Position numbers and translations under genes: made by a program. From an uncultured Gemmatimonadaceae bacterium (GTDB taxonomy: Bacteria; Gemmatimonadota; Gemmatimonadetes; Gemmatimonadales; Gemmatimonadaceae), in the NCBI GenBank assembly GCA_963781585.1, contig CAWAGQ010000004.1:640001-704000 (forward strand): a stretch of DNA of 64,000 bases, given 5' to 3'. The notes under the pieces were generated by a model, which did not search any database, was not told the DNA's origin, and saw only the letters and a program-made list of their open reading frames with translations. This document shows, in pieces, positions 1 through 63,386 of this stretch (position 1 is the first letter of the stretch; each line of letters begins with the position of its first letter).

Positions 1-496
1 GCAGGCCCGCGACGCCCGCGGTGGAGGCATGCGCGCGATGCGCGGAGCCGAAGGCATCGTTGACGTAGAAGTCGCCGAGTTCCGCGAACGCGCGCGACAG
101 CGCCTCGTCGTTCTTCTCCTCGCCGGCGTGGAACCTCGTGTTCTCGAGCACCAGAATGTCGCCATCGCCTAACGCGTGGGTGGCGGCGACGGCCTCGTCG
201 CCCGACGAGGCGGCGACGAATCGCACCTGGTGGTCGGTGAGCTCGCCGAGGCGCGCCGCAACCGGGGCCAGGCTGTACCTCGCGTCCGAACCGCCCTTCG
301 GCCGACCCAGGTGCGAGAACAGCACCACTCGCGCGCCGCGCGCGCACAGGTACGCGATCGTCGGCAGGGCGGCCCGGATGCGCGTGTCGTCGGCCACCCT
401 GCCCTCCGCGATCGGCACATTGAAGTCCACCCGCACCAGCGCCCGTCGTCCGCGGAGCAGTGCGTCCGGGAGGTCGCGCAGCGTCTTCTTGTTCAT
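1..496 (-). CDS. pgk: phosphoglycerate kinase, N-terminal part (gene runs off window start)
   Basis: Reading from ATG at 496 gives [28 protein letters not shown]...[12 protein letters not shown]...SHLGRPKG, then LENTRFH and [16 protein letters not shown]; lies downstream of gap. Confidence 0.95.
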
Positions 497-587
497 GGAA
501 ACCGGTCAGGCCGTCGCGAGCTGGCCGCCGCGTCCGCGCGGCGGTTCCGACCGCTGGACACGGGCTGATCCATCGGCGCCTCGCGCA

Positions 588-1598
588 CTAGAGCTTGCCG
601 CCAACCAGTCGGAGAAGGTCGACGCAACGGGTGGCGTACCCCCACTCGTTATCGTACCAGCCGCTCGTCTTCACCAGCGTGCCGTCGATGACGTTGGTGC
701 TGCGGGCATCCACGATGCAGCTGTGCGGGTTGCCGATATAATCCGACGACACCAGCTCCTCCTCCGACACGGCCAGCACGCCGCGCATCGGGCCGGCGGC
801 GGCTTCGCGAAACGCCGCATTGACCGCGTCGATGGTGGTTGGCCGCTCGACCTCGACCACCAGCTCATTGAGTGAGGCGTCCGGCGTCGGGACGCGGATC
901 GCCACGCCGTCGATCTTGCCCTTGACCTCGGGGATCACCAGTCCCGTCGCCTTTGCCGCCCCGGTGGTGGTGGGAATGATGGACAGGGCGGCGGCACGGG
1001 CCCGTCGCAGGTCGCGATGCGGCAGATCGAGGAGCTGCTGGTCGTTGGTGTAGCTGTGGATGGTGATCATCGTGCCGTGCCGGAATCCGAACGCGTCGCG
1101 GATGACCCGAACCATCGGTGCCAGGCAATTGGTCGTGCACGACGCGTTGGAGATGATGTGGTGCGTCGCCGGGTCGTAGCGATCCTGGTTTACCCCCATG
1201 ACGATCGTTATGTCCTCGCCTTTCGCCGGCGCCGAAATGATCACCTTGCGGGCGCCGCCCGCGATGTGTTTTCGCGCATCGTCGGCCCTGGTGAACTTCC
1301 CGGTGGACTCGAGCACGATGGTGACGCCGAGCTCGCGCCACGGCAGGGCCGCCGGGTCCTTCTCCGCGAACACTCTGATCGAATCACCGTCGATTTCAAG
1401 CGCGTTCTCGCTGTGCGCGACGGTGCCCCGGTAGGTGCGGTGCACCGAATCGTACTTGAAGAGGTGCGCCAGCGTCCGTGTATCGGTGAGGTCGTTGACC
1501 GCCACGAAGTCGAGATCCGTGAACTCCCTCTCCTTCGCGACGCGGATCACCTGGCGGCCGATGCGACCGAATCCGTTGATGCCGACTTTGATGGCCAT
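588..1598 (-). CDS. gap: glyceraldehyde-3-phosphate dehydrogenase, type I
   Basis: [15 protein letters not shown], catalytic [20 protein letters not shown]; start trimmed to ATG at 1598. Confidence 0.97.
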
Positions 1599-1617
1599 GG
1601 GCAGTTCGGAGCCTCGC

Positions 1618-3184: not shown

Positions 3185-3651
3185 GAACCGTGCGGCGTGC
3201 GCTCCGCGACCAGCCGGTCGAACACGCGGCGGATCTCCCCCTGCAGCTCGATGAGCGTGTCGCGGTAGTGCTCCAGCTCGCCGCCGAACGGATCGCTGAT
3301 GGCGCGGTCGCTCGCCGAATTCGACGCGAACGCGCTGAGGAGGTAGGTCTTCCCTTCCCCGCCTAACGCTTCAGCGCGCTCCAGGTGATGCGGGCCCATG
3401 ACCAAAATAATGTCGTGCTGCCGGACCAGGTCCCGGCTCAGCTGCTGCGCACGATGGGCACTGAGGTCGAGAGTGCGTTCCAGGGCCACCAGCAGCGCAC
3501 CGTCGGAGGCCGGAGCGCCCTCCCAGGCGCTCGTCCCCGCGCTCGCGACTTCCACGTCCGGCAATCCGCGCGCCATGGCTTCGCGGCGCGCCAGGGCCTC
3601 GGCCAGCGGGCTCCGACAGGTATTCCCGGTACACACAAAGAGAAGTCGCAT
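3181..3651 (-). CDS. low molecular weight protein tyrosine/arginine phosphatase
   Basis: LLFVCTGNTCRSPLAE P-loop, SAGT, ISDPFGG. Confidence 0.92.
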   Translation of the reverse strand: MRLLFVCTGNTCRSPLAEALARREAMARGLPDVEVASAGTSAWEGAPASDGALLVALERTLDLSAHRAQQLSRDLVRQHDIILVMGPHHLERAEALGGEGKTYLLSAFASNSASDRAISDPFGGELEHYRDTLIELQGEIRRVFDRLVAERTPHGS

Positions 3652-6456: not shown

Positions 6457-7877
6457 GTCGGCTGTCGGGGCGAGTAGTTGTCGAATCGCGTGTATTTCTT
6501 GTGGAAGAAGAGTCGCACCGTTTCGGTGGGCCCGTTGCGCTGCTTGCCGATGATCACCTCGGCGAGTCCTTCAATCGGGGTGCCGTCGCCCAGACGCCGC
6601 GGCTCGCCGCGCTCGTCGTTCGGCCCGTCGTAGTATTCCGGGCGATAGAGGAACATCACCACATCGGCGTCCTGCTCGATCGCGCCCGACTCGCGCAGGT
6701 CGGACAACTGCGGGCGACGGTTCTCGGCCGATCGTTGCTCGGGCGCGCGCGACAGCTGCGACAGCGCCACCACCGGCACCTTCAGCTCGCGCGACAGGTT
6801 TTTCAGCGAGCGCGAGATGTAGCTGATCTCCTGCTGTCGGTTCTCCGAATCGGACGGTCCCTGCATGAGCTGCAGATAGTCGATGATCACCAGGCCGATC
6901 CGGCTCTCGACCTGCAGCCGCCGCGCACGCGAACGGATGTCGAGCGCCGTGAGCGCCGGGGTATCGTCGATCCAGATCGGCGCCGAGCCGAGGATCCCGG
7001 CCGCCTTCGCGAGTCGGGCGAAGTCGTCATTGCTCAGCCGGCCGTTGCGCAGCTTCTGCGCGTCGATGTACCCCTCCGACGCCAGCATCCGTGCCACCAG
7101 CTGCTCCTTGGCCATCTCCAGCGAGAAGATCGCCACCGGCACCTGAGCCTGGATGGCCGCGTTCTGCGCCACGTTCAGCACGAACGCCGTCTTCCCCATC
7201 GACGGGCGCGCGGCAATGATGCTCAGTTCCGATCTCTGGAAGCCTAACGTGAGCTTGTCGAGATCGGCGTAGCCGCTGGGCACGCCGGTGATGGCGCTGG
7301 TGCCCCGCGACGTCTCCTCGATCCGCTCCATGCCCTCCCAGACGAGCTCCTTGATCCGATGGAAGCCCTCGCGGCCATGCTGCTGGCTGATCTGGAGAAT
7401 CCGCTGCTCGGCGTGGTCGAGCAGTTCGCCCGACGTGCGCCGGCCGTCAAACGCCGCCGTCACCAGCTCCGTGGACGTCTCGATCAGCCTCCGGACCAGC
7501 GCCTTCTCACGCACGATCCGGGCGTGGTACTCCACGTTGGCCGCGGTGGGGACTGCATCCAGCAGGAACGACAGGTATTCCTTTCCTCCTGAATGATCGA
7601 GCTCTCCCCGCAGGGCCAGTTCGTCGGCCAGCGTCAGCGCGTCGACCACCGCCCCGCGCTCGTTGAGCGCGACAATCGCGCGGAAGATCCGGCGATGTGC
7701 CTCGCGGTAGAACATCGTGTCATCGACATGTTCCGCGGCGCGATAGATCGCGTCGCGGTCCATGATCATCGCGCCCAGAACGGCTTGTTCCGCGTCCTCC
7801 GACCATGGCGGCCGGCGGTCGCGGTACGCGTCAGGGACTGATGGCGCGATCGAGGAGTCGTCGAGCAAGCTGGACAT
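6453..7877 (-). CDS. dnaB: replicative DNA helicase
   Basis: AEQAVLG, AARPSMGKT, FSLEM, IDYLQLM, LSQLSR, DLRESGAIEQDADV, KQRNGPT. Confidence 0.97.
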   Translation of the reverse strand: MSSLLDDSSIAPSVPDAYRDRRPPWSEDAEQAVLGAMIMDRDAIYRAAEHVDDTMFYREAHRRIFRAIVALNERGAVVDALTLADELALRGELDHSGGKEYLSFLLDAVPTAANVEYHARIVREKALVRRLIETSTELVTAAFDGRRTSGELLDHAEQRILQISQQHGREGFHRIKELVWEGMERIEETSRGTSAITGVPSGYADLDKLTLGFQRSELSIIAARPSMGKTAFVLNVAQNAAIQAQVPVAIFSLEMAKEQLVARMLASEGYIDAQKLRNGRLSNDDFARLAKAAGILGSAPIWIDDTPALTALDIRSRARRLQVESRIGLVIIDYLQLMQGPSDSENRQQEISYISRSLKNLSRELKVPVVALSQLSRAPEQRSAENRRPQLSDLRESGAIEQDADVVMFLYRPEYYDGPNDERGEPRRLGDGTPIEGLAEVIIGKQRNGPTETVRLFFHKKYTRFDNYSPRQPT

Positions 7878-13675: not shown

Positions 13676-15147
13676 CTCGTCCTCCCCCGAACGAATTCCA
13701 CAAAGGTACCCACTGGCACGCCGGTGGGTCCGCGCGGAATGATGACGAGATCCGTCTCGCTGTAGGCCGTCCCTGCCACGTCGAGGTGCACCCACGGATA
13801 GTCCACGAACTCCTGGAGGAACTTGGCGGCCGTAATGGTGCCGGCGGCGCGTCCGCCGGTGTTCTTGACGTCAGCCACGTCCGACTTGATGAGCTCCCGG
13901 TACTCGTCCCACAGGGGGAGTTGCCACGCCGGTTCGCTTGCCCGGCCGGCGGCGCTCACCACCTCGCGCACCAGACGGTCGTCACCGCCTAACGCGCCGG
14001 TTGCGGCGCTGCCGAGGGCCACGACGCAGGCGCCGGTCAGGGTGGCCGCATCGATCACCGCCTCCGGCTTGAAGCGCTTCACGTAGGTGAGCAGGTCGGC
14101 CAGCACCAGCCGGCCTTCGGCGTCGGTATTGATGATCTCGATGGTGCGACCCGAGCTGGCCGTCACCACGTCGCCCGGCTTGACGGCGGTGCCCGACGGC
14201 ATGTTGGTCGTGGCGCCGAACACGCCGACGACGTTCGCGCGGAGTCCGAGGCGCGCAATCGCTTCCATCGCCCCGATCACGCCCGCCGCGCCGCACATGT
14301 CGAACTTCATGAATTCCATGCGATCGGCCGGCTTGATGGAGATGCCTCCCGTATCGAAGCAGAGTCCCTTCCCCACCAGCACAATCGGTCTGGCGTCCTT
14401 CCTGCCCTTCCGGTATTCCAGCGTCACCAAGCGGGGCTCCTGCGGTGTGCCCTGGGCGACCGCGAGAAACGAGCCCATCTTCTCGCGCTCCATTTCCTTG
14501 CGACCGAGCACTGTAACCTGCATCCGGTGGCGCTTGCCGATGTCGCGAGCCACGTCAGCCAGGAGATCGGGGGTGCAGAGATTCCCCGGCATCATCGCGA
14601 GACGCCTGGCCACCGCGTATCCCGACCCGAGCGCCAGCGCCGCGGCCAGCCCCCGCCGCGCGCGGGCGGCGTCGGCCACCAGAATGGTGGCCGCCGTGAG
14701 CGGTGCGCGGCGTGACTCGTCAGGCGGCGGAGTCCTGAGGTCGTTGTATTCCCAGCTGCCGAGCTGCACTCCCACTCCCACCCCTTCCACACCGCGCGCG
14801 TCCAGGCGCCCACCCCAGACGGTCATCGATCCCACCCCCATTCGTTGCGCCTGGCGCGCGGCCAGCGTGGCCGCGCGGCGCAGCGCCAGCCCCACGTCCT
14901 TCGGAGTGCCGATCCCGACCAGCAGCAGCCGCCGGGCCCGGCCCTCGCGTCCGCTGAGGTGCAGGGTCTCGTCGCGTTCGCCGCGGAAGTCGCCGCGCTG
15001 CAGCGTCTGCGACAACAGCCCGTCCGTTGCGGCGTCGAGCGGTCGCAGAGCAGGAGGAAGCCGACGTGATGCGGGGAGCAAGAGCACCAGAAGCGGTGTC
15101 GCGACGCTGGTGACGTCGGACGACCGAACTTCGAGCGAGAGGGGCAT
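13672..15147 (-). CDS. pepA: leucyl aminopeptidase (M17)
   Basis: LVGKGLCFDTGGISIKP, MKFDMCGAA, NTDAEGRLVLAD, ATLTGA, HLDVAGTA. Confidence 0.95.
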   Translation of the reverse strand: MPLSLEVRSSDVTSVATPLLVLLLPASRRLPPALRPLDAATDGLLSQTLQRGDFRGERDETLHLSGREGRARRLLLVGIGTPKDVGLALRRAATLAARQAQRMGVGSMTVWGGRLDARGVEGVGVGVQLGSWEYNDLRTPPPDESRRAPLTAATILVADAARARRGLAAALALGSGYAVARRLAMMPGNLCTPDLLADVARDIGKRHRMQVTVLGRKEMEREKMGSFLAVAQGTPQEPRLVTLEYRKGRKDARPIVLVGKGLCFDTGGISIKPADRMEFMKFDMCGAAGVIGAMEAIARLGLRANVVGVFGATTNMPSGTAVKPGDVVTASSGRTIEIINTDAEGRLVLADLLTYVKRFKPEAVIDAATLTGACVVALGSAATGALGGDDRLVREVVSAAGRASEPAWQLPLWDEYRELIKSDVADVKNTGGRAAGTITAAKFLQEFVDYPWVHLDVAGTAYSETDLVIIPRGPTGVPVGTFVEFVRGRTS

Positions 15148-17580: not shown

Positions 17581-17733
17581 CTACGCACCCGCGTCTGGCG
17601 ACCTGATGAAGGCGTGGTCCATCGCACCGGCAAGACTTCTGGCACCGCGGCATAAGCGACGATCATTCCCCACCGGCGGCCCCTTGGGTGCGCCGATCGT
17701 CCGCCTGCGCGCCTAACGCTCGGTCGAAATGAG

Positions 17734-17789: not shown

Positions 17790-17901
17790 AACAACGACGG
17801 GTGCGGTGTTTGCCGGTGTTCGCCGATGTTGTTGTGTGAGCGACCGTTAGGCACTTCGGTTCATGTGCTGCGGGAAGCATGTTTGACGATGTTTTGCGGT
17901 G

Positions 17902-17934: not shown

Positions 17935-17951
17935 ATCAACCAGGAAGGCCA

Positions 17952-19697: not shown

Positions 19698-19700
19698 ACG

Positions 19701-22512: not shown

Positions 22513-22519
22513 GCCGGCC

Positions 22520-23129: not shown

Positions 23130-24002
23130 ATGACCTCACTGAAGTACTCGAAGCCGGAACGTATCTGGTTGAAGGACCATCCTGATTTGGATGAGCGCTG
23201 GCTTCAGGACCGGATCGGTGAGGATCCGGCACTCCTCGGCCTTGGAGACTTGGTCCTGAAGGATCGAGAGCGACCGCAGCCTCGAGCTGGGCGGCTCGAC
23301 CTGCTACTTCAAGATGCGGAGACCAACAAGCGCTACGAGGTCGAGGTGCAGCTCGGCAAGACCGATGAGGCGCACATCATCCGCACCATCGAGTACTGGG
23401 ACATCGAGCGGAAACGATATCCGCAATATGACCACACGGCGGTGATCGTCGCCGAGGATATTACCGGCCGTTTCCTTAACGTCATCAGCCTATTCAACGG
23501 TTCCATTCCCCTTGTCGCCATTCAGATGAGCGCGGTCCGGCTCGGCGATTCTGTATCGTTGATCTGTTCGAAGGTTCTCGACGAGATGCGCCTTGGCCTC
23601 GTGGACGAGGACGAGGAAGTCCAGGCAGCAGCGGACCGGTCGTATTGGGAGGCTCGAGCAAGCAAACACACCCTGGCGATGGCGGACGAAATGCTCGAAG
23701 TGGTTCGTGCTTTCGATCCGCAGCTCGAGCTCAAGTACAACAAGTTCTATATCGGCCTGGCCAAGGGTGGTCAGCCAAACAACTTTGTCATCTTCCGTCC
23801 GAAGAAGGACTGGCTTCGGCTTGAAGTGCGCCTCGACCGCTCAGACGAGACGCAAGCACAGCTCGATGGATCGGGTCTCGACGTCATGGACTACGATTCC
23901 CGATGGGGGCGGTACAGAATCCGCCTCGCCAAGGGCGACACTACGAAGCACAGGGATTTCCTGGCGGCGCTCATGACGAAGGCATTCGCAGGGACCGCAT
24001 AA
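23130..24002 (+). CDS. NucS/PD-(D/E)xK-like nuclease with DUF5655-like C-terminal domain (integron cassette 1)
   Basis: ERWLQDRI...GRLDLL...YEVEVQLGKTDEAHIIRTIEYW; C-terminal KYNKFYIGL...NFVIFRP; stop codon lies inside the attC R'' box. Confidence 0.75.
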   Translation: MTSLKYSKPERIWLKDHPDLDERWLQDRIGEDPALLGLGDLVLKDRERPQPRAGRLDLLLQDAETNKRYEVEVQLGKTDEAHIIRTIEYWDIERKRYPQYDHTAVIVAEDITGRFLNVISLFNGSIPLVAIQMSAVRLGDSVSLICSKVLDEMRLGLVDEDEEVQAAADRSYWEARASKHTLAMADEMLEVVRAFDPQLELKYNKFYIGLAKGGQPNNFVIFRPKKDWLRLEVRLDRSDETQAQLDGSGLDVMDYDSRWGRYRIRLAKGDTTKHRDFLAALMTKAFAGTA

Positions 24003-24072
24003 CAAGCGTTTGCAGCCGACGGCGGCGTGTGAAATCGTTTGGTGCCGCCGCGGCTGAAACACAACGTTAGGC
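23997..24072 (+). other. attC recombination site (76 bp)
   Basis: GCATAAC-AAGCG-TTT(G)CAGCCG(A)CGGCGGC-loop-GCCGCCGCGGCTGAAA-CACAAC-GTTAGGC: R''/R' boxes, paired L arms, two extrahelical bases. Confidence 0.9.
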
Positions 24073-24800: not shown

Positions 24801-24983
24801 CGGAGCTGACCTGCTCGGACGTCCGAATCTGCCCGCCACGCGGCTCGAACGCGCGAGTTCGGGTACGACGCGGGCGACTCGTGGAAAAAGGGCACGCCCT
24901 ATGACCATCGTCGGGATGAGGGCGAGGCTGGCGACGGAGCGACTGTCGCCTAACGGTTTCGTCACGCCATTTCGCTGTTGAAG

Positions 24984-27144: not shown

Positions 27145-28452
27145 GTGCAATCTCGCGTCGATGCGTACGAGCCGCAGAATGACGAAGAGCTCGAGGACGT
27201 CCTCGGGTCGCCAGAGGGGAACGGCACGAAACCGCATCCGGCGAATGAGCCCGGACTCCCTTCCTTCGTGCGACTGTCCGAGGTGGCGCCTGACATCGCG
27301 ATCGAGTGGGACGCCGAGGACCTCTTTGTGCACGGAGAACCTGCGGTTCTGGCCGGGAGAGGGGCCACGTACAAGACGTCGACGATCCTCGCGATGGCCG
27401 GCGCCGTCGCGACGGGACATCGCGTCTTCGGGCGGTTCCATGTGCCCACGCCTGGTCCGTTCTGCTACGTCTCAGGCGAGGATCCGCCCGAGGTGATCCG
27501 CAACCGCCTCGAGGCCATTTGCCACGGCCACGGCTATAACGTGGCCGACGCGTTCGAGAACGTGCACGTGCTCGCGCTCTCCGGCATCGACCTCGCGGAA
27601 GAACGTTGGCGTCGACACGTCAGGGATGAAGTGCGCGCCATCGGCGCGCGGATGCTCGTGCTGGATCCGCTCGCCGAAGTGGACAGCGGCGAGGAGAACA
27701 ACAACGACGACCGCCGGCGCCTCGTACGCGCGATCCGGTGGTTCGGCGCGGAGACCGACGCGACGGTCCTGGTGGCGCACCACTTCCGCAAGAGCGCCGA
27801 GGGCGGAGACAAAGGTGATCTGATCCGGGGCGGTAATGCGCTCCCAAACGCGTCCCGGCAGACGTACGCCTTGGAACGCCTCGACGACGGGAGCGTGACC
27901 GTGGAGTGCGTGAAGTTCTCGCGGGCTGCGCGGCGACCACCCTTCGTGCTGCGGCCGATCATAGAGACCAAACCGGGCAACGAAGCGGTCTGGCTGAGTG
28001 CCCGGTTTGAATACGCCACGGCCTCCGAGGCCAAGTTCGACCGGGCGGAGGAATTCGTGCTCGAGCGCCTCACGCTCGGGGTCCGATTGAGCACCTCAGA
28101 CCTGAAGCTCGAGGCCAAGGGGACCGGTGTTTCCGGTGCCGATATTGCCCGGGCGCTGCGGGTGCTCGAGATGCGCCGGCTCATCAGTTTCGAGGCCGGG
28201 GAGAAGAATGCGAAGCTCTGGGGTCTGGTTGCCGGGCAAGCTGGGCAACCAGAGAATGTGCTTGCCCGGCAAACAGGCAGCTTGCCGGGCAACCAGAATA
28301 AGGCCGGTTCTGCTTGCCTTGCCCCCTTTAGGGGGGCAAGCAGAAACCGGCCGCCTAACGAGCACCGGCAACCAGACCCGCCCCCGAACCACGGCGAGGC
28401 CTGGGAGCCGCCTCTCGACGATTCGCAGGCAGCGATGTGGGGCGGCGCATGA
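27145..28452 (+). CDS. AAA_25/RepA-like helicase
   Basis: Walker A-like LAGRGATYKTS, YVSGED, Walker B MLVLDPL, VAHHFRK, IRGGNAL; wHTH-like C-terminal part. Confidence 0.85.
   Translation: MQSRVDAYEPQNDEELEDVLGSPEGNGTKPHPANEPGLPSFVRLSEVAPDIAIEWDAEDLFVHGEPAVLAGRGATYKTSTILAMAGAVATGHRVFGRFHVPTPGPFCYVSGEDPPEVIRNRLEAICHGHGYNVADAFENVHVLALSGIDLAEERWRRHVRDEVRAIGARMLVLDPLAEVDSGEENNNDDRRRLVRAIRWFGAETDATVLVAHHFRKSAEGGDKGDLIRGGNALPNASRQTYALERLDDGSVTVECVKFSRAARRPPFVLRPIIETKPGNEAVWLSARFEYATASEAKFDRAEEFVLERLTLGVRLSTSDLKLEAKGTGVSGADIARALRVLEMRRLISFEAGEKNAKLWGLVAGQAGQPENVLARQTGSLPGNQNKAGSACLAPFRGASRNRPPNEHRQPDPPPNHGEAWEPPLDDSQAAMWGGA
28229..28351. repeat. iteron-like TTGCC(G/C)GGCAA cluster with a large inverted repeat, putative replication origin
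   Basis: Copies at 28229, 28262 and 28282; GCCGGTTCTGCTTGCC...TTGCCCCC-TTTA-GGGGGGCAAGCAGAAACCGGC. Confidence 0.55.
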
Positions 28453-35854: not shown

Positions 35855-35875
35855 CGGGGTCGCGTCCGTCAGCCG

Positions 35876-39180: not shown

Positions 39181-40394
39181 ACCGGGAGGTTTCCGAGCAG
39201 GTCGCGGGCGATCACGAGGCGTTGAATCTCGCTCGTGCCTTCCCCGATCTCGCAGACCTTGGCATCGCGCATCATGCGCTCGACGGGAAAGTCCCTGGTG
39301 TAGCCGTAGCCTCCGTGGAGCTGGACGGCCTTAATCGTCGCCCGCATGGCCAGTTCCGAGCAGAACAGCTTGGCCATCGCGGCGGCGGTCGTGTACGGCT
39401 TGCCGTGCTGCGCCAGCCAGGCCGCGTGGTAGACGAGGTGCTTCCCGGCCTCGATCTCGGTCGCCAGGTCACTGAGCTGGAACTGGACGCCCTGGAACAG
39501 GGCCACCGGTTGCCCGAACTGGCGGCGGCCCGAGGTGTACCGGACCGCCTGGTCGAACGCCCCCTCGGCGATGCCTAACGAGAGAGCGCCGATCCCGATG
39601 CGTCCGGAATCGAGCGTGCGCATGAAATTGACGAATCCCTCTCCCTCATTTCCGAGGCGGTTCTCCACCGGCACTTCGACATCCTCGAGGATGAGCTCCC
39701 GGGTATCTGATGCGCGCCATCCGAGCTTGTCTTCCTTCCGGCCGGAGCGAAACCCCGGCATGGCCGCGATGGTCGGGTCGTGGCCGATGCCGTGCGGGCG
39801 GGCACGCTCCCGATCGTCGTTGTGCTTGGTGAGGATGAACGAGGTGATGCCGCGCGCCTTCCTGGCGGGGTCGGTGAGCGCGGTCACCACGAAGATCTCG
39901 CCCACGCCGCCGTGCGTGATGAAGCGCTTGGATCCGTTCAGGATGTATCGATCACCCTTCCGCCGAGCGACCGTGCGGGTGCCCCCGGCGTCGCTGCCCG
40001 CACCCTCTTCGGTGAGTCCAAAGCCGCCCATCACCCGACCCGACGCCAGCGGCGCCACGAAGCGCAATCGCTGGGCATCGGTTCCGAAATGCACGATTGG
40101 CGACGTGCCCAGCGTGGTGTGCGCGGAAATCGTGAGCGCATGAGACGCGTCGACCTTGGCCAGTTCGTGAATGGCGATGATGTAGCTGAACAGGTCGAGG
40201 CCGGCGCCGCCGAGTGATTCGGGCCACGGGATGCCCAGCAGCCCGAGTTCCGACATGCGCCGGATGTTCTCCCAAGGAAACTCGGCTGATTCGTCGTACT
40301 GCGCGGCAACCGGCGCGACCACGTCGGTCGCAAACGCGCGCACCATCTCGCGCACCGCCAGATGCTGCTCGGTGAAATACAGCCTGTCGTCCAT
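39177..40394 (-). CDS. acyl-CoA dehydrogenase
   Basis: [55 protein letters not shown]. Confidence 0.95.
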
Positions 40395-40510: not shown

Positions 40511-42187
40511 TCAGTCGTCGCAGTTATCGCACCGTGAGCACGTAGCCCGCGCCGACTCGTCGCCGAAATATCGAAGGATGTATTCGCGGCGGCAACCGCG
40601 AGTTGCAGCGTAACCAACCATCGCGTCGAGCTTTGCACGTTCCCCGGCTCGCCGGTGCTCCAGGCGATGGAGCGCTGCGGCCAGGTGGAGCTCTGCGCGA
40701 CGGCCCGTGTCGAGGGTGCCGTGGCGGACGTGGCGGCGCACGTAGACCAGCTGCCGGCCCTCGAGCTCCTGGAGTGCGCGCTGAAGCACAAACGGACGCG
40801 CCACGAGCGGCGGCTGATCGACGGCGATCCAGTCGTCACCGCCGGTGTCGCACGCGAAGCGCAGAACGCGGCGCGCCGATTCGGAAAGCGCGGCCTCTTC
40901 GCAGACTGCCCGGAGGGGCGAGGCCAGCAGACGGATCTGGACCGGGTCGGCGCGGTCGGCCACGTGCAGGAGGCCATTCTGTTGCAGGAAGTCGGCGGCG
41001 CGTTTGAGAGAGTCCGGCGCGAGACGCTGTCGCGAGCCGGCGGCCAGCCGCGAGGGGTCGAGGCGCACCGGCGCCGATTCGCGGGCCAGCAGGTCGTAGG
41101 TGCGCCTAACGACGGACGGTTCGGGATACGACACGTCGCGAAAGCGATCGTGCACCCGCCGATCGCGGGGATGGAAGAGGAGGATGCAGCGCGCCGCCGC
41201 CCCGTCACGACCGGCGCGGCCGGCCTCCTGATAGTAGTCCTCCAGCGAGCCCGACATCGCGAAATGGAGCACCAGTCGTACGTCGGCCTTGTCGATGCCC
41301 ATGCCGAAAGCGTTGGTTGCGGCAATGATCGGCACCCGGCCGCTCATGAATGACTCCTGCGCGCGTGCGCGACGGTCCGGCGAGAGCCCGGCGTGGTATC
41401 CCACGGCCGCGATGCGCTGCTTCGCGAGCAGTCGGACCACATGCTCTACCTGTCGCCGTGTGGCGGCGTACACCACCACTGCCCCGGACGGATTGGCGAC
41501 CAGTCCGGCCATCGCCTCCACGCGCGCGGCTTCGTTCGCGACGGCGGCGACGCCAAGGCGGAGGTTTGGTCGGTCGAAGCCGCTGACGATTTCGACCGGC
41601 GCCCGCAGCCCCAGCAACTCGCGAATGTCTCGCCGAACCGCCGGCGTGGCGGTTGCGGTCAGGGCGACCGTCTGGGGCATTCCGAGCGTCCGCCTGACGT
41701 CGCGGATGCGGAGATAGCTCGGTCGGAAATCGTGGCCCCATTCGCTCACACAATGCGCTTCGTCGACAGCCAGGAGCGACGGCCGGAGCACGCGAAGCAG
41801 GTCGATCGTGGACGCGATGACGAGTCGCTCCGGGGCGACGTACAGCAGTTTGATCTCACCCCGCCGCAGCCGGGCAAGTCGGCGCGCCGCCTCGTCAGGC
41901 GGCACGGTGCTGTTGATGACTTCCGCCGCCACGCCGCGCTTCTGGAGGGCCTGCACCTGGTCCGCCATCAGCGAGATGAGGGGGGAGACGACCACAGTCA
42001 GACCGGGCAGCAGGAGCGCCGGAATCTGAAAGCAGAGGGACTTCCCGCCGCCGGTCGGGAGCACGATCAGCGCATCCGCGCGCCGAAGCACGGCCTGCAC
42101 GGCACCGATCTGCGGCGCGCGAAAGTCGTCGTAGCCGAAGGTGGCGCGGAGTGCGCTGCGTGCATCGTCGAGCGTGAGCGGGGGCAC
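40511..42187 (-). CDS. recQ: RecQ family ATP-dependent DNA helicase
   Basis: [52 protein letters not shown], Zn domain CRR...CSRCDNC. Confidence 0.95.
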
Positions 42188-43815: not shown

Positions 43816-45429
43816 GTGGGCAGACTGCCGCGTCGCTCCGTTCTTGCTGCCGTCATCGCGTGCGCCGCACCTTCGGCGCTCTCCGCTCAGGTCATTCAGA
43901 TTCAAGGGACAGCCTCGTCCCTGGAGTCGGGGGTCGGCGCCGCTCTGAAGGTGTGGGGCGACGGTTACGACGGCGGTGCGGGCATCGGGTACCTGCGTGG
44001 GCTTCGCACGAGTCTCTGGGTGCGACGCGCGATCGGGCGCGACACGCTCCGGCTGGGCGACGATGTCATTCCCCTGCGCCTCGCGTCCGATGTATTCGGC
44101 TCGAGTCCGGTGATTCTCGCGCAGGGGGCAGGGTTGCGCGCGCGCCGCGGCCGCACGGCCTTCAGCGTGTTCGCCGGCGCGAGTGCACGCGCCCTGCCCT
44201 CTCCGCTCTTCACATCGACAGAACGCGAATCACCGCTGGGCTACCTGCACGGCGAGAGCGCGATCTCTCCGAGGATTTTGCTGGCGGGAGACGCGGTGGT
44301 GGCACACCGACAGACGCTGCTACTGAGCTCTTCGTGGCAGCCGGTGTCGGACATGACGGCAAGCGCCTCCGCCGGCGTGGGTGGCAACGCGCCGTATGCC
44401 GCGTCCGCGTTCCGGGTTCACCGGGAGCGCTTCGACGTCACAACGGCGTACGTGTATCACGGAGACGCCTATCGGCGCGCCGATGCGCCCCTCAGCGTCC
44501 ACGCCGAAGTCGAAGGGGCGAATGCATCCGCGACCTGGCGCCCCTTGCCTTCGTTCGCCATCAACGCCGGCCGACAGCACTTCCGGCAGGACAGCGTGGT
44601 GGCCGGCATGTCGCCCAATGCCACATCCACTCAGGCGTCACTCTCCTGGGCCTCAACCGCATTGGCCGCGTCGCTGGGTGGCTTCGAGTCGCAGTCGGAT
44701 TCCGTGCGCAATTTCAGTTCGTTCGCGTACCTGCGGCGCGACCTGACTTCGTGGTTTCGGGGGGATCTCTATCTGCTCTCGATCTGGGAGCCGCATCGGA
44801 TCCGCAGCACGACCCCGGTCCTGTACCTGCGCGAAAGCCTCTCGCCACGCGCGGAGTTCGTTCAGGTCGTGACGCGCAGCGACCGTGGCACGACGGTCAA
44901 TTTCGGCGGGGCCCTGCGGGGCGGACTCAGCGAAGTGAGCGTCGACTATCAGGTCGTGCACTCCCCGCTCCGCGTCAACGACCCCTTCCAGACGTCCATG
45001 GGGCTGACGGTGAGGCTGCAGCTTGGCGCCCTGCAACTTTCCCTCGGGAGCTTCGTGGCGCCCGACGGCCGCACGTACTTCTCGGCGTCGGGCGGGAGCT
45101 TTCTCTATCGCGCGGCGTCATCGATGGGGCGAGCCGAGGGGCTGCTGTTCCAGTTCGACCGATTCCTCGTGCGGGGACGCGTGGTCGACGAGGAGGGCAA
45201 CCCGGTCGAGGGTGCCGCCATTCGACTGGGAGACGAGACCGTCTACACGAACCGCCGCGGTGAATTCTTTCTCCGACGCCCCTCGGCGCAGGCGCTGCCG
45301 CTCACGGTGCTGCCAACGGACTTTCTGCTGCCGGGAACCTACGAGACCGTCAGCGCGCCCGAACAGGCGACACCGGCACGAGAGGGACACGAGCAGCCGG
45401 TCACCATCGTGGTCCGCAAGCGCGCCTAA
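43816..45429 (+). CDS. outer-membrane beta-rich protein with C-terminal carboxypeptidase-regulatory-like domain (usher-like)
   Basis: Signal peptide; amphipathic beta strands; VRGRVVDEEGNPVEGAAI...TNRRGEFF. Confidence 0.6.
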   Translation: MGRLPRRSVLAAVIACAAPSALSAQVIQIQGTASSLESGVGAALKVWGDGYDGGAGIGYLRGLRTSLWVRRAIGRDTLRLGDDVIPLRLASDVFGSSPVILAQGAGLRARRGRTAFSVFAGASARALPSPLFTSTERESPLGYLHGESAISPRILLAGDAVVAHRQTLLLSSSWQPVSDMTASASAGVGGNAPYAASAFRVHRERFDVTTAYVYHGDAYRRADAPLSVHAEVEGANASATWRPLPSFAINAGRQHFRQDSVVAGMSPNATSTQASLSWASTALAASLGGFESQSDSVRNFSSFAYLRRDLTSWFRGDLYLLSIWEPHRIRSTTPVLYLRESLSPRAEFVQVVTRSDRGTTVNFGGALRGGLSEVSVDYQVVHSPLRVNDPFQTSMGLTVRLQLGALQLSLGSFVAPDGRTYFSASGGSFLYRAASSMGRAEGLLFQFDRFLVRGRVVDEEGNPVEGAAIRLGDETVYTNRRGEFFLRRPSAQALPLTVLPTDFLLPGTYETVSAPEQATPAREGHEQPVTIVVRKRA

Positions 45430-45956
45430 CGTGCCTCCCCGACCGGACCGATGAGGTGCAGCACATCCTCGCGATCGGCGACCAACCGACCATTCACATC
45501 GAACAGTTCGTACCGCAGGCAGGCCGCCCCGGTCGCCTGTCCGGGTTCCGCGATCACGCGATATCGGACCACGCGCTCCGCGGTCGCTGACAGCATGACG
45601 GGGCTGGCCCCGGCCGCCTCGGGAACGATGACCAGACGGCCCGCGCTGTCGCGAACGAACAGGCGCGTCACGTTGTCGCCGCGGCTGCACTGGCCCTTCG
45701 TCAGGCCGAGGACATCGCCAGTCCTAACGACAAACGGTATCGGCGCGGTGACGTCCAGAACCTGCGGGCCCACCCGGCGGACGGTCTCACCGGTGGGGAG
45801 TCGTGGTTCGGGGGCGCTGATGGGCGCGGTGGCAGGCGGCCGCTTGACGACGATCAGGGTTACTTGCGCGACCCTGCTCCGGGTTGCCTGCGCCCTGGTG
45901 CTGACGGGGGTCAGCAACAGGCAGGCGACCAGGGTAACGGGGAGCGTCCGCTGCAT
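45426..45956 (-). CDS. hypothetical secreted protein
   Basis: Signal peptide ..TPVSTRAQ; convergent with the usher-like gene. Confidence 0.5.
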   Translation of the reverse strand: MQRTLPVTLVACLLLTPVSTRAQATRSRVAQVTLIVVKRPPATAPISAPEPRLPTGETVRRVGPQVLDVTAPIPFVVRTGDVLGLTKGQCSRGDNVTRLFVRDSAGRLVIVPEAAGASPVMLSATAERVVRYRVIAEPGQATGAACLRYELFDVNGRLVADREDVLHLIGPVGEAR

Positions 45957-49422: not shown

Positions 49423-50784
49423 TCACGTGACGAGCTCCACGCGCGTCTCGACGGCTGTCTTGTCGATGAGCGCGGGCCAGTATGCCACGATCTCCTCCAC
49501 CTTGGGCCGACCGCCGGCGAAGCCGGTGACGGTGGGGGGGCCGTTGAGCACCAGCGGGGCGATTTCCCGGGTGAATCGCGCCACCGGCGCCTGATCCGCG
49601 GAGCGCACGCCGACACGCAGCTGGACCTCGGGGAAATCGCACGGCTCGTGGACCAGCGGACCGTGCGTGGCGTTGGCGCCCACGAACTCGGTCACGATCG
49701 CATCGAACCGCAAGCCCAGCCTGGCGAGACGCTCGCGGAGCACACGATCGGCACGCTGGGCCTTGGCGAGAGCCTGGGGCCAGGCATAGACGAGGGTCCC
49801 CACCGCCTTGAAGCCCGCGCGATAGGCGATCGAGACCTTGAGCCTGTCGGTCGGCGGCTTCCCGACGATGTCCGAGACGTGCACGCGGTCAGGGCCGGCC
49901 TGGGTGAGCCGGATGCTGGTGAAGTCGGCGACGACGTCCGGCGTGATATAGGAGCGCGGGTCGCCCATCTCGTAGACGAGTTGCTCGGTAACCGACGGAA
50001 CGGAAATGCGGCCCCCGGTGCCGGGATGCTTGGTGATGTCGAAGGAGCCGTCGGGGTGCGCCTCGACGATCGGATATCCGACATTGGCGAGGTCAGGGAT
50101 CGTTTCCCAGTCGTGGAGGCAGTTCCCTCCCGAGCACTGGGCGCCGCATTCGATGATGTGTCCGGCGATGATGCCGGCGGCGAGCCGGTTCCAGTCACCG
50201 GCCTGCCAGCCGAACTCGAAGCGAAGGGGCGCCATGGTGAGGGCGGTGTCGGTGGACCGTCCCGTGACGACCACATTGGCCCCCATGCCTAACGCCTCGA
50301 CGATCGGTCCGGAACCGAGGTAGGCGTTGGCGGCGAGGACGCGGTCACGGACGCGGGAGAGGGGATCACCGGTGTCCATGTTCGAGAGGGCGTGGCCTTC
50401 CGCCAGCAGCGCGTCGAGCCGGGGCAGGAGATCGTCGCCGGTCACAACGCCCAGCCGGAGCTTTCCCCTGACGCGACGTGCGTCGGCGAGCGCAAGCAGG
50501 GCCTTTGCGCAGGCCCCCGGATTGACGCCGCCGGCGTTGGCGACCACCCTGACGCCCCGCTCGACCACGGCCGACAGGACGCTGTCGACCGCGTCGACGA
50601 AATCGCGGGCGAATCCGGCATCGGGGTCGCGTTCCTTCTGCTTCTGCAGAATGGACATCGTGACCTCGGCCAGATAGTCGAGCATGAGGTAGTCGATCGG
50701 GCCACCGGCGACCTGCCGTCGCGGCGCCTCGAGCCAGTCGCCCCAGAAACCCTGTCCGGCGGCCACGCGCACCGTGCTCTTCAT
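49423..50784 (-). CDS. atuA: acyclic terpene utilization AtuA family protein (DUF1446)
   Basis: [60 protein letters not shown]. Confidence 0.9.
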
Positions 50785-52403: not shown

Positions 52404-52813
52404 GCTTCCTGCGTCTGCCGGCTCGTGAACCACTGGCGGATGTACTCCACCAGCGCTGAGGTGGACGTGCCCGGACCGAACAGCTGTCCGATGCCCTGCG
52501 CCTGCAGCGCCTCCATGTCCTCGTGGGGGATGATCCCGCCGCCGGTGATCAGGACATCCTCCCGGCCGGCGTCGACCAGCAGCTGCCTAACGCGTGGAAA
52601 GAGGGTCATGTGCGCGCCGCTGAGAATCGAAAGCCCCACCACGTCCACGTCCTCCTGGATCGCGGCGTTGGCGATCATCTCGGGGGTCTGGTGGAGTCCC
52701 GTGTAGATGACCTCCATGCCGGCGTCGCGGAGCGCCGCGGCGACGACCTTGGCGCCGCGGTCGTGGCCGTCGAGACCGGGTTTGGCGATGAGCACGCGAA
52801 TGGGTCGGGACAT
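52400..52813 (-). CDS. acyl-CoA mutase small (cobalamin-binding) subunit
   Basis: [27 protein letters not shown]. Confidence 0.95.
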
Positions 52814-58019: not shown

Positions 58020-58483
58020 AGGAGGCCCTCCCGTTGGGCCAGATGCAACAGCCGCTCCTGGCGCCGCCACATGGGCGAGCGCTCGCGGCGCCCGTTCTCC
58101 GGGTGGCGCATGCCTAACGCGTGGAGGATGCCGTGGATGACCACGCGGGCCAGTTCCTCGCGAACCGGGAGACCGAGGCGCCGGGCCTGGGTCCGCACCA
58201 CATCGGGCGACACGTAGATGTCGCCGACCACCGGCGCCGCGGAACCGGCGCGTCCGAGCGCGAAGGTGATGACATCGGTGGGGCCCTGATGGCCGAGATG
58301 GCGGCGGTTCATCGCGGCAATGCGGCGGCGGGACACGAACGCCAGCGACAGCAGCGCCTGCCGCTGGCCCTGGCGGTGCAGGACGGACTCCCCGAGGGCG
58401 CGCAACCGCCGCGCGCCCAGGGCCGGACGAAAGCCGCCCAGGTCGATGTCGATCGCCAGGTCAGGCGTTGAAGTCTTCCGCAT
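58016..58483 (-). CDS. ybeY: rRNA maturation endoribonuclease
   Basis: [25 protein letters not shown]; start uncertain (ATG 58483 or CTG 58459). Confidence 0.9.
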
Positions 58484-61200: not shown

Positions 61201-61407
61201 GCGGTCGAGGCTCCGAGCGGGCAAATCTCCCGGTCCGCGACGCGACCCGACCCTCTCATCCTCATGTGCGGCAAAGATCGCTCGCGGGTGCCAAGCGCAA
61301 TGGTGGCGATGGTCGAGGCATTGGTGCCTTGGCAATCTAAGGGACAGGGACGTGGGCGGGTAGCGATGTCGTTGACCGCACCTGGTCTGATGCATAAGCT
61401 TAAGTCA

Positions 61408-62313
61408 ATGCGCCACAATGGGTTTTGGGCAGCGCTTCTTGCACTTTCGCCGCTACTGGTCTCGGCGCAGCAGATCCCCGGACGGGATCTGTTCGAGTTT
61501 CCCCTGGGCTCGCTGGCGGAGGGACGGGCTCTGGCGCTCGCGACCGGCGATGGTCTGCGGAACCCGGCATCCATTGGATTGCCGACAGGCGTGCGCGCCC
61601 GATTCTCGGTCTCGTCGCTCACCAGTGGGACGGATGAGGGGGTGGCTGGACAGATCCTGTCGGTCGCGGTGCCGGTTCGGAATCAGGTCACGGCCGGCGT
61701 GTCCGTGGCCCGGGCTGCGGTGAGCGGGATCGGACTCACGCAGGACGATCCCCAGTCAGTGGGCAGCGATCTGCCCTACAGCGTATTCGTGCTGTCGGCA
61801 CTCGCGGCGCGTCGCTCGTCTCCCAACGTCACAACCGGAGTGGCACTCCGCTACCAGTACGGGGAGCTGGATACGGAGCACCGGACTGCGCTCGGGGTCG
61901 ACGCTGGCGTGGTTGTGGAGCACATCCTCACGGTCGACGGCCGGCTTGGTCTGTCGAGCTTTCTCTGGCGTCCCGGGACCGGGAGTGGCGATGGCGCGGC
62001 GTTTTCCGGAGCGTTCGACGCGAGGATTGCGGGGCGTGATTCGCTGGCGCAACTGCGCGCCGGCTATTCGTACAACGACTCGCCCGGACTGGACCGGGAG
62101 CATTACGCGTTCGCGTCGGCGCGCGTGGGACGATGGGAGGCGCGCGGCGGGCTCGCGCGGACCCTGGTGGCGGGGCACTACACGTCGCGGATGCGTTTTG
62201 CGATCGACCTGCACTACGCGCGCTACCTGGTGGGTGTGGCGCGCGACGAGAGTCCGGCGGGGCTGACGGCGATCTATCATTTCACGTTCGTGACGTCGGT
62301 GCCCTCGCCATGA
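61408..62313 (+). CDS. hypothetical outer-membrane beta-barrel protein
   Basis: Signal peptide ..PLLVSAQQ, NPA motif, alternating beta strands (PorV/FadL-like layout). Confidence 0.55.
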   Translation: MRHNGFWAALLALSPLLVSAQQIPGRDLFEFPLGSLAEGRALALATGDGLRNPASIGLPTGVRARFSVSSLTSGTDEGVAGQILSVAVPVRNQVTAGVSVARAAVSGIGLTQDDPQSVGSDLPYSVFVLSALAARRSSPNVTTGVALRYQYGELDTEHRTALGVDAGVVVEHILTVDGRLGLSSFLWRPGTGSGDGAAFSGAFDARIAGRDSLAQLRAGYSYNDSPGLDREHYAFASARVGRWEARGGLARTLVAGHYTSRMRFAIDLHYARYLVGVARDESPAGLTAIYHFTFVTSVPSP

Positions 62314-63386
62314 CAATCAATCTGCTCGATCTGCTGCCTGACGAGGCCGAGCAGGCGGTGGCCGCGTTCGCTCGCGAGCAGGGCGAACCCACGTATCGCG
62401 GGCGCCAGGTGGTCGGGCACCTGTGGCAGCGCCCGGCGGCGTCGTTCGAGGCGATGAGCGATCTGCCGCGCGCATTCCGCGACGGCCTCACTGCGCGCTT
62501 CACCGTCCCCCGCCTCGCGCTCGAGGTGCGGCAGACGTCGCTCGACGGGACCGAGAAGTTTCTGTTCCGGCTGCACGACGGCCAGGCGATCGAGACGGTG
62601 GCGATCCCCGACCGCGGACGCCTCACGCTCTGCATCTCGTCGCAGGCCGGGTGCGCCCTCCAGTGCGCCTTCTGCGCGACCGGCGCGATGGGGTTTGCGC
62701 GGAATCTGCAGCCGTTCGAAATCGCCGGGCAGGTGCGGGAGATGGCGCTGCTCGATCCACCCCTGCGGCCCACCAACGTGGTGTTCATGGGGATGGGGGA
62801 GCCGCTGATGAACTGGCCTGCGGTGGAACGGGCGCTCGAGCTGCTCAATCATCCCAAGGGGCTCGAGATCGGGGCCCGCCATATCACCGTGTCGACCGTG
62901 GGTGTGCTGCCCGGCATCGAAGCGTTAGGCGCGCGCCCGGAGCAGTTCCGGCTGGCGATCTCGGTGCATGCTCCCACCGACGCGTTGCGCCGGTCGCTGA
63001 TGCCGATCAACCTGAAGTATCCGCTGGCGTCGGTGATCGAAGCCGCAAAGTGCTTCGCGCGGCGCGTGACCTTCGAGTACGTGATGCTGCGGGGCGTGAA
63101 CGACAGCGCCCAGTCGGCCGATACGCTGGGCGCGCTGGCGCGGGAGTGCGGCGCGTTCGTGAACCTCATTCCGCTGCACCCTGGCGGCGCCGGACCGTTC
63201 TCTCCCACGGCGGCCGCGGATATCCGGCGGTTCGCTGGACGCCTGCGTGCCGCAGGCGTCCGCGTGGCGGTGCGAAAGAGCCGGGGCCTGGACATCGCGG
63301 CCGCCTGCGGTCAGCTACGGGTGGAACGGCTGCGACGGCGGCCGCCAGTCGGTGCCGAGGAGCACCGTGACATCCAGGTAGCGTGA
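62310..63386 (+). CDS. rlmN: 23S rRNA/tRNA adenine C2-methyltransferase
   Basis: CISSQAGCALQCAFCATG, FMGMGEP, FEYVML, NLIP, DIAAACGQL. Confidence 0.96.
   Translation: MTINLLDLLPDEAEQAVAAFAREQGEPTYRGRQVVGHLWQRPAASFEAMSDLPRAFRDGLTARFTVPRLALEVRQTSLDGTEKFLFRLHDGQAIETVAIPDRGRLTLCISSQAGCALQCAFCATGAMGFARNLQPFEIAGQVREMALLDPPLRPTNVVFMGMGEPLMNWPAVERALELLNHPKGLEIGARHITVSTVGVLPGIEALGARPEQFRLAISVHAPTDALRRSLMPINLKYPLASVIEAAKCFARRVTFEYVMLRGVNDSAQSADTLGALARECGAFVNLIPLHPGGAGPFSPTAAADIRRFAGRLRAAGVRVAVRKSRGLDIAAACGQLRVERLRRRPPVGAEEHRDIQVA

Follow-up and report, generated by a model that had tools for sequence, protein, structure and literature searches.

A non-palindromic octamer written throughout a Gemmatimonadaceae genome, and possibly a self-DNA tag

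Why would a bacterium spell the same eight-letter word again and again across its chromosome, core genes included, and use rare codons to do so? The question is raised by a 64,000-nucleotide stretch of DNA, hereafter the window, from an uncultured soil Gemmatimonadaceae bacterium (contig CAWAGQ010000004.1, positions 640,001 to 704,000; G000:C4:640001-704000 in our numbering, with G000 denoting the source genome, an assembly of 5.72 Mb in 17 contigs with 67% GC). A sequence-only reading of the window had listed 18 exact copies of the octamer GCCTAACG, which reads CGTTAGGC on the other strand, and had compared it to DNA uptake sequences (DUS), Chi and the cyanobacterial word HIP1. All 18 copies are there, 14 on the plus and 4 on the minus strand, an imbalance that arises because most genes of the window lie on the minus strand; the six additional sites listed as keeping only the core CCTAACG are present as well. 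Dinucleotide-preserving shuffles of the window hold 1.01 copies on average and 4 at most, with none of 100 reaching 18, and the window total of 24 CCTAACG compares with 3.1 expected. Apart from cyanobacterial HIP1, genome-wide words of the uptake type are known to us from just two families of proteobacteria; is the octamer another such word, or something else?

Abundance, coding context and word shape

The octamer is a feature of the whole genome and not a local oddity, as had been supposed from the window. G000 contains 1442 copies, 718 on the plus and 724 on the minus strand, at 0.19-0.34 per kb on all 17 contigs, where Markov models of orders 1, 2 and 3 predict 89, 44 and 51; in other words, the octamer is about 30-fold over-abundant in this genome, as it is in some relatives. 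It far outranks every other 8-mer of the genome, and directly below it stand its own overlapping sub-words. Because these sub-words carry the signal, a maximal-order Markov null (orders 5-6 included) masks the octamer and was dropped, and expected counts were taken from orders 1-3 and from a within-gene synonymous shuffle. This shuffle, which preserves codon counts, returns 14-26 copies of CGTTAGGC and 22-35 of GCCTAACG over ten runs (means of about 19 and 28), and the called genes hold 790 and 331, an excess of about 40-fold and 12-fold; a codon-aware null thus fails to explain the count. Nor are TTA codons equally common outside the octamer: 760 of the 1322 TTA codons (57%) lie within it, and 832 precede GGC. 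A tRNA-Leu(UAA) gene is present.

The word enters genes in more than one way. Sense-strand xCG-TTA-GGC accounts for 758 copies, xxG-CCT-AAC-G for 267, xGC-CTA-ACG for 61 and GTT-AGG for 30; another 104 fall on gene boundaries, 220 are intergenic, and 2 contain an in-frame stop and are gene miscalls. Both orientations therefore occur within genes, and non-coding DNA (927,920 bp) is no exception, its 220 copies standing against 14-18 expected (12-16-fold) at a density like that of genes. What the choice of site tracks is codon cost and not strand: the peptide context x-P-N-(GAVDE) is written as the octamer in 270 of 840 cases and (S/P/T/A)-L-G in 759 of 4826, with rarer use of (S/C/R/G)-L-T (61 of 2451) and V-R (30 of 3150). 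The residue ahead of Leu-Gly is immaterial, at 13-17% for each of the four, so that the sense-strand preference reflects the abundance of cheap contexts and not recognition of a strand. Stop codons take part too, with 42 of 338 TAA and 71 of 1364 TAG written by the octamer. In the window, Pfam agrees with the coding contexts proposed from the sequence, namely Leu-Gly as TTA-GGC in pgk, ptp, dnaB, pepA, the acyl-CoA dehydrogenase gene, atuA, ybeY and rlmN, and Val-Arg as GTT-AGG in recQ (a recQ-like helicase) and the small subunit of a B12-binding mutase; the two genes said to end on the octamer's TAA are rpmA, for ribosomal protein L27, and the gene at 43951-45429. With an open reading frame (ORF) of 110 aa at 35541 that the earlier list lacked, 9 of the 18 copies are sense-strand xCG-TTA-GGC, and the others comprise 2 GTT-AGG, 1 G-CCT-AAC-G in an AAA_25 gene, the 2 TAA stops and 4 intergenic copies.

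The signal stops at the edges of the eight letters. Alignment of all 1442 sites reveals no flank conservation, only a weak avoidance of G at -1 and +9 together with the 3-base periodicity of coding DNA. Of the 24 words that differ from it at a single letter, few show enrichment (ACCTAACG, GCATAACG and GCCTAACA, 2-8-fold) and many are depleted; GCCTGACG, one mismatch away, is common, but its letters can also spell CTG-ACG, a frequent pair of codons. The process behind the octamer thus acts at the DNA level, with exact 8-bp specificity, on both strands and in all compartments. Neither strand's 8-mer turned up as a word in the literature that we searched, and what we found on Gemmatimonadota together with uptake or attC held nothing on the octamer.

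Relatives, chromosomal placement and integron attC sites

How far does the word extend beyond this genome? We call a genome rich if its octamer count lies above that of a reversed-word control. Among the 41 genomes of an order-level sample, 12 are rich, with 177-6360 copies (G000, G001, G005, G009, G014, G015, G020, G023, G024, G036, G038 and G040), G013 and G016 are intermediate (194 and 173 copies), and 27 are poor, with 3-65. The richest, G009, carries its 6360 copies at 1.25 per kb, and G000 has 0.25 per kb. In a phylum-level sample of 251 genomes, rich ones belong to family f1 (G240, G165 and G193, for example, with 3896, 1100 and 815 copies) and to one genus of f2 (G211, 1061; G173, 726; G218, 579); in families f4-f12, 0 of 81 genomes are rich and none exceeds 70 copies. 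In these tallies the unpublished genomes G008, G085, G203 and G124 count as ordinary poor rows, the relatives' genome sizes are rounded, and related genomes are not independent of one another. Poor relatives share similar GC and codon usage. A 400-kb sample of the poor genome G003 holds no hyper-abundant 8-mer (the top ratio is about 3), and the poor genomes therefore lack the phenomenon as opposed to using another word; the idea of alternative 'dialect' words was rejected. In a PepA tree, which like the IntI tree below is a single-gene tree (29 rows, from a locus found in 30 of the 41 genomes, with the partial G001 row left out and many forks unresolved), G023, G009, G000, G024, G016 and G015 form one clade and the other rich genomes are scattered beside poor ones.

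Between close relatives the word is held in place. Over 217,346 aligned columns at 88.1% identity, G000 and its congener G001 share 38 copies, with 11 found only in G000 and 3 only in G001, and most alleles at the unshared sites fit synonymous variants (CTA, CTG, CTC or TTG for TTA, and GGG for GGC). The octamer is therefore conserved at 38 of 49 sites (78%), about twice as well as synonymous control words. The 13 controls, which include synonymous Leu/Gly codings as well as other words of matched composition, reach 25-51%, and 8-mers taken as a whole reach 41%. Single copies can be followed further: the one in pepA occupies the same codon in G000, G001 and G024, and those in dnaB and pgk are common to G000 and G009, at about 73% nucleotide identity. 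The 15.5 kb of G000-G009 alignment holds 2 shared copies, 2 specific to G000 and 8 specific to G009.

Along the chromosome, orientation follows gene sense. A replichore could be assigned for only 265 of the 1442 sites; among these the sense preference is the same in leading-strand genes (142:55) and lagging-strand genes (23:6), and intergenic copies divide 13:15. A strand skew by replichore of the Chi or KOPS type (KOPS, FtsK-orienting polar sequences), which the reading of the window had proposed to check for, is thus not what the copies follow; the correlation of GC skew with motif skew arises only via gene strand, and replichore polarity was rejected. Gaps between neighbouring copies (n = 1425) have an exponential-like mean and coefficient of variation, with a deficit of short gaps: those below 100 bp make up 0.6% vs 2.5% expected, those below 500 bp 4.8% vs 12%, and those below 1 kb 14.8% vs 22.6%. 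Only 20 neighbour pairs lie within 200 bp, 8 of them convergent. The octamer is, then, still maintained, locally saturated with few close pairs, and present or absent by lineage. As local GC increases, its density climbs from 1.1 to 4.1 per 10 kb, and over quintiles of codon bias from 0.12 to 0.33 per kb; the octamer marks compositionally native DNA and does not avoid strongly biased genes.

The seven letters GTTAGGC within the octamer are the classical integron core (GTTRRRY/RYYYAAC), and it had been remarked from the window that copies might therefore act as secondary sites for the integron integrase, IntI. The first part of this remark holds more exactly than anticipated. In poor genomes the few copies are clustered every 500-600 bp on one strand, as cassette arrays adjoining integron integrase genes. 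We collected 55 attC sites from such arrays (in G027, G025 and G029 of family f2 and G026 and G032 of f3); they share the layout R'' GCCTAAC[A/C] ... L'' ... L' ... R'. The closing letters are CGTTAGGC in 52 and CGTTAGAC in 3, and the R'' box is never followed by G. The octamer thus consists of the R' box and the C ahead of it (C+GTTAGGC), an identity too exact for chance, which for an arbitrary 8-mer would supply it about 1 time in 33,000 by our own arithmetic. A covariance model built from 36 attC sites (R1), with 104 candidates scored per genome so that hit counts are lower bounds, places the attC family in at least 30 of the 41 genomes, with at least 51 sites in G027, at least 31 in G032 and 0-15 in rich or intermediate genomes. 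Integrons have been reported from Gemmatimonadota (PMC8618304).

The second part of the remark fared less well. Dispersed copies do not have attC structure (crude hairpin scans of G000 found almost none, and the covariance model at least 6): they lack the imperfect inverted repeat R''-L''...L'-R' of a hairpin, and the 1442 copies have no conserved flanks. The at least 6 attC hits of G000 account for less than 1% of its octamer copies. Richness also does not track IntI. Matches to the IntI model (TIGR02249) pass the cut-off in 26 genomes out of 41, among them G000, and are distributed over 8 of the 14 rich or intermediate genomes and 18 of the 27 poor ones; none over cut-off was found in the rich G024, G005 and G015 or the intermediate G013. 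The only integron-integrase match of G009, at G009:C182:835-1781, is spread across three reading frames, probably as a pseudogene, and in a tree of 18 IntI sequences rich and poor genomes are intermixed.

A possible self-DNA tag and its alternatives

Which process could write an exact word into a genome in this manner? Uptake-biased drive, as for DUS and the uptake signal sequences (USS), and the maintenance of HIP1 are known processes of such a kind, and we therefore favour transfer-biased drive: tentatively, and with slightly less than even confidence, we regard the octamer as a self-DNA tag akin to DUS, USS and HIP1, built up by molecular drive through biased transfer, most likely at uptake. 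We hypothesize that, when relatives exchange DNA, one of the steps favours fragments carrying the exact 8-mer, the likeliest such step being the binding of free DNA by the encoded route of type IV pilus, ComEA and ComEC, for which transformability would have to be assumed. Fragments with the octamer would recombine in more often, and octamer alleles would therefore replace alleles without it; the word would accumulate wherever the protein sequence permits, despite rare codons (TTA, CCT, AGG and CTA) and an imposed choice of TAA or TAG as stop. The hardware for this route is encoded in G000, which has ComEC, a ComEA-like protein, 17 prepilin-type genes and a type IV pilus locus with three pilin-like genes, pilM, pilN and a pilQ secretin (AMIN domain), followed by aroK and aroC. 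If this explanation is correct, uptake-type words extend to Gemmatimonadota, a phylum abundant in soil and poorly represented in culture, and the 8-mer on donor DNA may aid the transformation of these bacteria. Genera that are close kin, and hold either 3-65 copies of the octamer or as many as 6360, amount to a natural experiment, and because of this contrast a phylogenetic profile could find the reader protein. The octamer further provides a sharp marker by which metagenomes can be binned and foreign DNA recognised in these genomes.

Comparison with the known systems informs this preference. DUS reach a density of about 1 per kb, a value between the 0.25 of G000 and the 1.25 of G009, and USS consist of a core with AT-rich flanking segments. 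Uptake sequences are described in PMC1939737 as non-palindromic, located largely in ORFs, without orientation bias round the chromosome and evenly spaced. Like the DUS of Neisseriaceae, which are read by ComP, the octamer is a short non-palindromic word in hundreds to thousands of copies, genic and intergenic, with no chromosome-wide orientation bias (PMC1939737), and it is shared by related genera (compare PMC3868556 and PMC3630211). Unlike DUS, it is 8 bp and not 10-12 bp long, has no dialects (the same word is simply abundant or not), forms few inverted, terminator-capable pairs (20 pairs at 200 bp or less among 1425 gaps), and resides in a different phylum, where no rich genome has a ComP_DUS-family protein over cut-off. 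The USS of Pasteurellaceae lie in preferred frames, have been reported as evenly spaced and have been explained by molecular drive (PMC1939737, PMC2817400). The octamer shares with them a location mostly in ORFs, in preferred frames that encode common peptides (758 xCG-TTA-GGC and 267 CCT-AAC of 1442), and a spacing more even than random (gaps below 500 bp 4.8% vs 12%); it differs in lacking a flank signal and in its mismatched forms, which are barely enriched. HIP1 (GCGATCGC) is a cyanobacterial octamer that occurs 15- to 300-fold more often than expected and is better conserved than neutrality predicts (PMC5861425); it is absent from some lineages, and a 2026 paper proposes it as an uptake signal and links it to transformation (PMC13756078). 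Conservation above neutral expectation is shared by our octamer (38 of 49, with controls at 25-51%). Unlike HIP1, which is a palindrome tied to the methylases DmtA and DmtC, GCCTAACG is not its own reverse complement, and the three G000 methylases that were tested do not follow octamer richness, other families not having been searched.

A number of observations weigh against a self-DNA tag read at uptake. The first concerns the reader: none of nine candidates tracks richness over the 41 genomes. ComEC occurs in 40 of 41 and the ComEA-like protein in 36 of 41, in rich and poor genomes alike, and ComP_DUS (PF16732) exceeds its cut-off of 27.3 bits in a single genome, the poor G011, with G000 at 19.9 bits; all three were rejected as drivers. 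The proposed check for co-occurrence with methyltransferase or competence genes gave no support among the genes covered: three methylases, ComEC and the ComEA-like protein do not follow richness. The second concerns specificity, which is sharp: one-mismatch forms are hardly enriched here, and in published uptake sequences mismatched forms are enriched by degrees (PMC1939737); the specificity looks sharper than a typical uptake bias. Third, a 38.7-kb block of core genes (G000:C4:866742-905435; alaS, recA, ftsK, biotin carboxylase, a pilT-like ATPase, surA, hutU, hutH, lptD and tatC) is free of the octamer, where about 10 copies are expected. Such deserts are not prophages, because they hold core genes, and this one is not an import from a poor lineage, because it is syntenic with G001 at 85-88% identity, which matches the genome average and points to vertical inheritance. 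Its tetranucleotide signature is ordinary (74th percentile), and the G001 counterpart (G001:C18:1-40000) is poor as well, with 0 and 2 copies in two 20-kb stretches. Fourth, our literature search turned up no paper on natural transformation in Gemmatimonadota. Data quality counts too: G000 is a metagenome bin, 93.5% complete with 7.2% contamination, and all gene-based counts rest on a crude home-made ORF caller (4523 genes, 83.7% coding). Finally, the identity of the octamer with the attC R' box is explained neither by simple uptake nor by the other simple models.

This last point leads to the boldest reading that we allow, in which the exchange step and the integron may share their recognition word by descent or selection. 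The tag and the integron would then be mechanistically linked, either because an exchange step adopted the attC R' box or because an integron-derived reader acts genome-wide; the step might be uptake itself or some other event of transfer or recombination. We think such a link unlikely, and worth stating for what it would imply. The identity of octamer and integron core bears on the movement of cassettes between cells and on the conservation of attC ends. If the link is real, every gene cassette carries its host's 'take me up' tag, and the crossover word of the cassettes has been written all over the host chromosome; natural transformation, or an equivalent, is tied directly to the capture of integron cassettes, and the octamer is the first uptake-type signal with an identifiable sequence origin.

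Must DNA enter the cell at all? Sequence-specific biased repair or gene conversion within the cell would do without uptake: a protein would read the 8-mer where one strand of a heteroduplex or mismatched site carries it, and would steer the repair in its favour, as in very-short-patch repair or in the older methyltransferase-linked view of HIP1. Exact-word specificity with scant enrichment of one-mismatch forms resembles an enzyme recognition site, and equal enrichment in coding and non-coding DNA, maintenance between congeners, and the equipment of G000 (a Dcm-type methylase and a Vsr nuclease in one frame, and two Eco57I/TaqI-like adenine methylases) are all consistent with this proposal. 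Nevertheless, repair of a single methylated base cannot lift an 8-mer about 30-fold, under the proposal close pairs should not be scarce, although they are, and no candidate enzyme tracks richness. Dcm plus Vsr is found in 3 of 41 genomes (G000, G007 and G019) and the 439-aa TaqI-like methylase, at full length and 54-56% identity, in 3 of 41 (G000, G009 and G017), with weaker partial matches in 17 more; the 1076-aa Eco57I-like methylase is in 40 of 41, and an N6_N4 methylase was not found in G000, other methylase families and nucleases not having been searched. We would put biased repair at a low but not negligible probability, on a par with the integron link above.

Alternatively, the copies might serve the integron machinery itself, as double-stranded R boxes for IntI or another tyrosine recombinase, be it as landing pads (secondary or 'attG' sites), decoys or nicking sites. 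The letter-for-letter match with the R' end of 52 of 55 attC sites of the order, at a chance of about 1 in 33,000, speaks for such a role, as do the frequency of integrases (26 of 41 genomes, G000 among them) and of attC-family sites (at least 30 of 41). Unlike attC or 'attG' sites, dispersed copies have no R''-L''-L'-R' partner, lie inside core genes and do not follow IntI, and they outnumber attC hits by more than 100:1 in G000 (1442 vs at least 6). Most copies are in essential genes, where insertion would harm, and the variants permitted by the degenerate GTTRRRY consensus are not enriched. The integron integrase, in both classes of genome, and the IntI clade, with rich and poor mixed in its tree, were rejected as drivers, as was a second, IntI-like recombinase of 301 aa, limited to 4 of 41 genomes; in the richest genome IntI is broken across three frames, and three rich genomes and one intermediate have none over cut-off. 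We consider this role doubtful.

A polar signal of the Chi or KOPS/AIMS type (AIMS, architecture imparting sequences), for recombinational repair or chromosome segregation, is very improbable. Chi and KOPS are over-represented 8-mers at about one per 4-5 kb, and the octamer, with 1 copy per 4 kb and 8 bp, does resemble the Chi of E. coli; by our own sums, about 64% of the CGTTAGGC copies in the large contig C4 fall on what is presumed to be the leading strand. This skew is, however, what gene orientation and sense preference predict, given the 23:6 of lagging-strand genes and the 13:15 of intergenic copies. Additionally, the octamer is unlike Chi in being written with rare and not common codons; RecC and the alpha-type AddB (PF04257, TIGR02786) had no match in the 93.5%-complete G000, where Gram-positive-type AddB and AdnAB were not searched; and poor relatives have no substitute word, unlike what a universal repair signal would show. 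Of the analogies drawn from the window, then, that with DUS and HIP1 fits, given the lack of replichore polarity, even spacing, DNA-level action and conservation between species, and that with Chi and KOPS does not.

An artefactual origin in base composition, in the use of codons or codon pairs or in a dispersed repeat element, for which only prior expectation and the abundance of GCCTGACG (itself readable as CTG-ACG) could be cited, is refuted by the roughly 40-fold and 12-fold shortfalls of the synonymous shuffle, the 57% of TTA codons inside the octamer, the 12-16-fold intergenic enrichment, the unconserved flanks and the mere 3-65 copies in relatives of like GC and codon usage.

The window and other loci of the genome

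The octamer copies of the window and its attC site are collected in Table 1, with gene contexts from the home-made ORF caller and Pfam.

Table 1. Octamer copies and attC site in the window (window coordinates)
Feature	Position	Strand	Context
Octamer copy	167..174	+	xCG-TTA-GGC, sense (-) strand of pgk
Octamer copy	3361..3368	+	xCG-TTA-GGC, low-molecular-weight phosphotyrosine phosphatase gene (- strand)
Octamer copy	7242..7249	+	xCG-TTA-GGC, dnaB (- strand); same column in G009, a different genus
Octamer copy	13987..13994	+	xCG-TTA-GGC, pepA (M17 aminopeptidase, - strand); same codon in G024 and G001
Octamer copy	17711..17718	+	Intergenic; directly left of the island's 56-nt tRNA-Leu repeat
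Octamer copy	17845..17852	-	Intergenic; just within the genomic island
Integron-type attC	23997..24072	+	R'' GCATAAC ... R' CGTTAGGC; last 8 bases are octamer copy 24065-24072
Octamer copy	24948..24955	+	Intergenic, within the island
Octamer copy	28353..28360	+	xxG-CCT-AAC-Gxx (Pro-Asn), sense strand of AAA_25 gene in the island
Octamer copy	35541..35548	+	xCG-TTA-GGC, unnamed 110-aa ORF (- strand)
Octamer copy	35874..35881	-	GCC-TAA-CG, stop codon of rpmA (ribosomal protein L27)
Octamer copy	39573..39580	+	xCG-TTA-GGC, acyl-CoA dehydrogenase gene
Octamer copy	41104..41111	+	xxC-GTT-AGG-Cxx (Val-Arg), recQ-like helicase gene
Octamer copy	45424..45431	+	GCC-TAA-CG, stop codon of gene 43951-45429
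Octamer copy	50287..50294	+	xCG-TTA-GGC, atuA
Octamer copy	52585..52592	+	GTT-AGG, B12-binding mutase small subunit gene
Octamer copy	58112..58119	+	xCG-TTA-GGC, ybeY
Octamer copy	62923..62930	-	xCG-TTA-GGC, rlmN (+ strand gene)

The attC site of the window, which belongs to the at least 6 of G000, scores 58.7 bits (E 3.3e-11) with the covariance model and aligns with 35 attC sites. It opens a small cassette cluster without an integrase (23997-24780), its attC being of the order's family, and is followed by a cassette-like ORF of 220 aa (24097-24759) with no Pfam match; at 24775 there is a second R''-like start (GGCCTAACAACG...) without a recognisable R' end, a decayed site. The cluster lies in a 14.9-kb genomic island (17734-32663) integrated in tRNA-Leu(CAA), whose ends are a perfect 56-nt direct repeat of the 3' part of the tRNA (17734-17789 and 32608-32663), with the intact tRNA at 32608-32691 on the minus strand. 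The island coincides with the low-GC stretch (62-64%) and holds, besides the attC cassette, 4 octamer copies, about the genome average. Across some 570-750 kb of contig C4, a range that spans the window, gene orientation and GC skew flip, from plus-strand genes and positive skew on the left to minus-strand genes and negative skew on the right; the window is probably near a replication terminus.

Elsewhere in the genome, the stretches most atypical in composition are G000:C8:247000-342000 and C5:247000-323000, at 62% GC and with few octamers, which still hold the core genes argG, argH, murB and mnmG; they may be contamination (7.2% of the bin) or a genuine low-GC region. The 301-aa tyrosine recombinase exists in three 100%-identical copies (G000:C7:172353-173255, C7:182952-183854 and C13:309003-309905), two of which flank the intI region, and in an identical copy in G001:C13:6352-7254. 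It resembles integron integrases, aligning with them in two pieces with the middle segment absent, and looks like a recently active mobile element. Among the methylases, the Dcm-type cytosine methylase and the Vsr mismatch endonuclease share one 790-aa open frame (G000:C7:477177-478451), with relatives only in G007 and G019. The 1076-aa adenine methylase, Eco57I/MmeI-like with a TaqI-like specificity domain, lies beside an 800-aa SNF2/ResIII helicase and is duplicated at 90% identity (G000:C6:142082-147699 and C2:157769-160996); its presence in 40 of the 41 genomes is unusually core-like for an enzyme of the restriction-modification type. The octamer is also not the only over-represented family of words: tandem heptamers, (AGGCCAA)n with the variants GGTCATA, GGCCAGA and GGCCATA, occur throughout G000 and in G001:C5, with 111 copies of AAGGCCAAAGG, 108 of them outside called genes, and 331 copies of TTTGGCCT where about 28 are expected.

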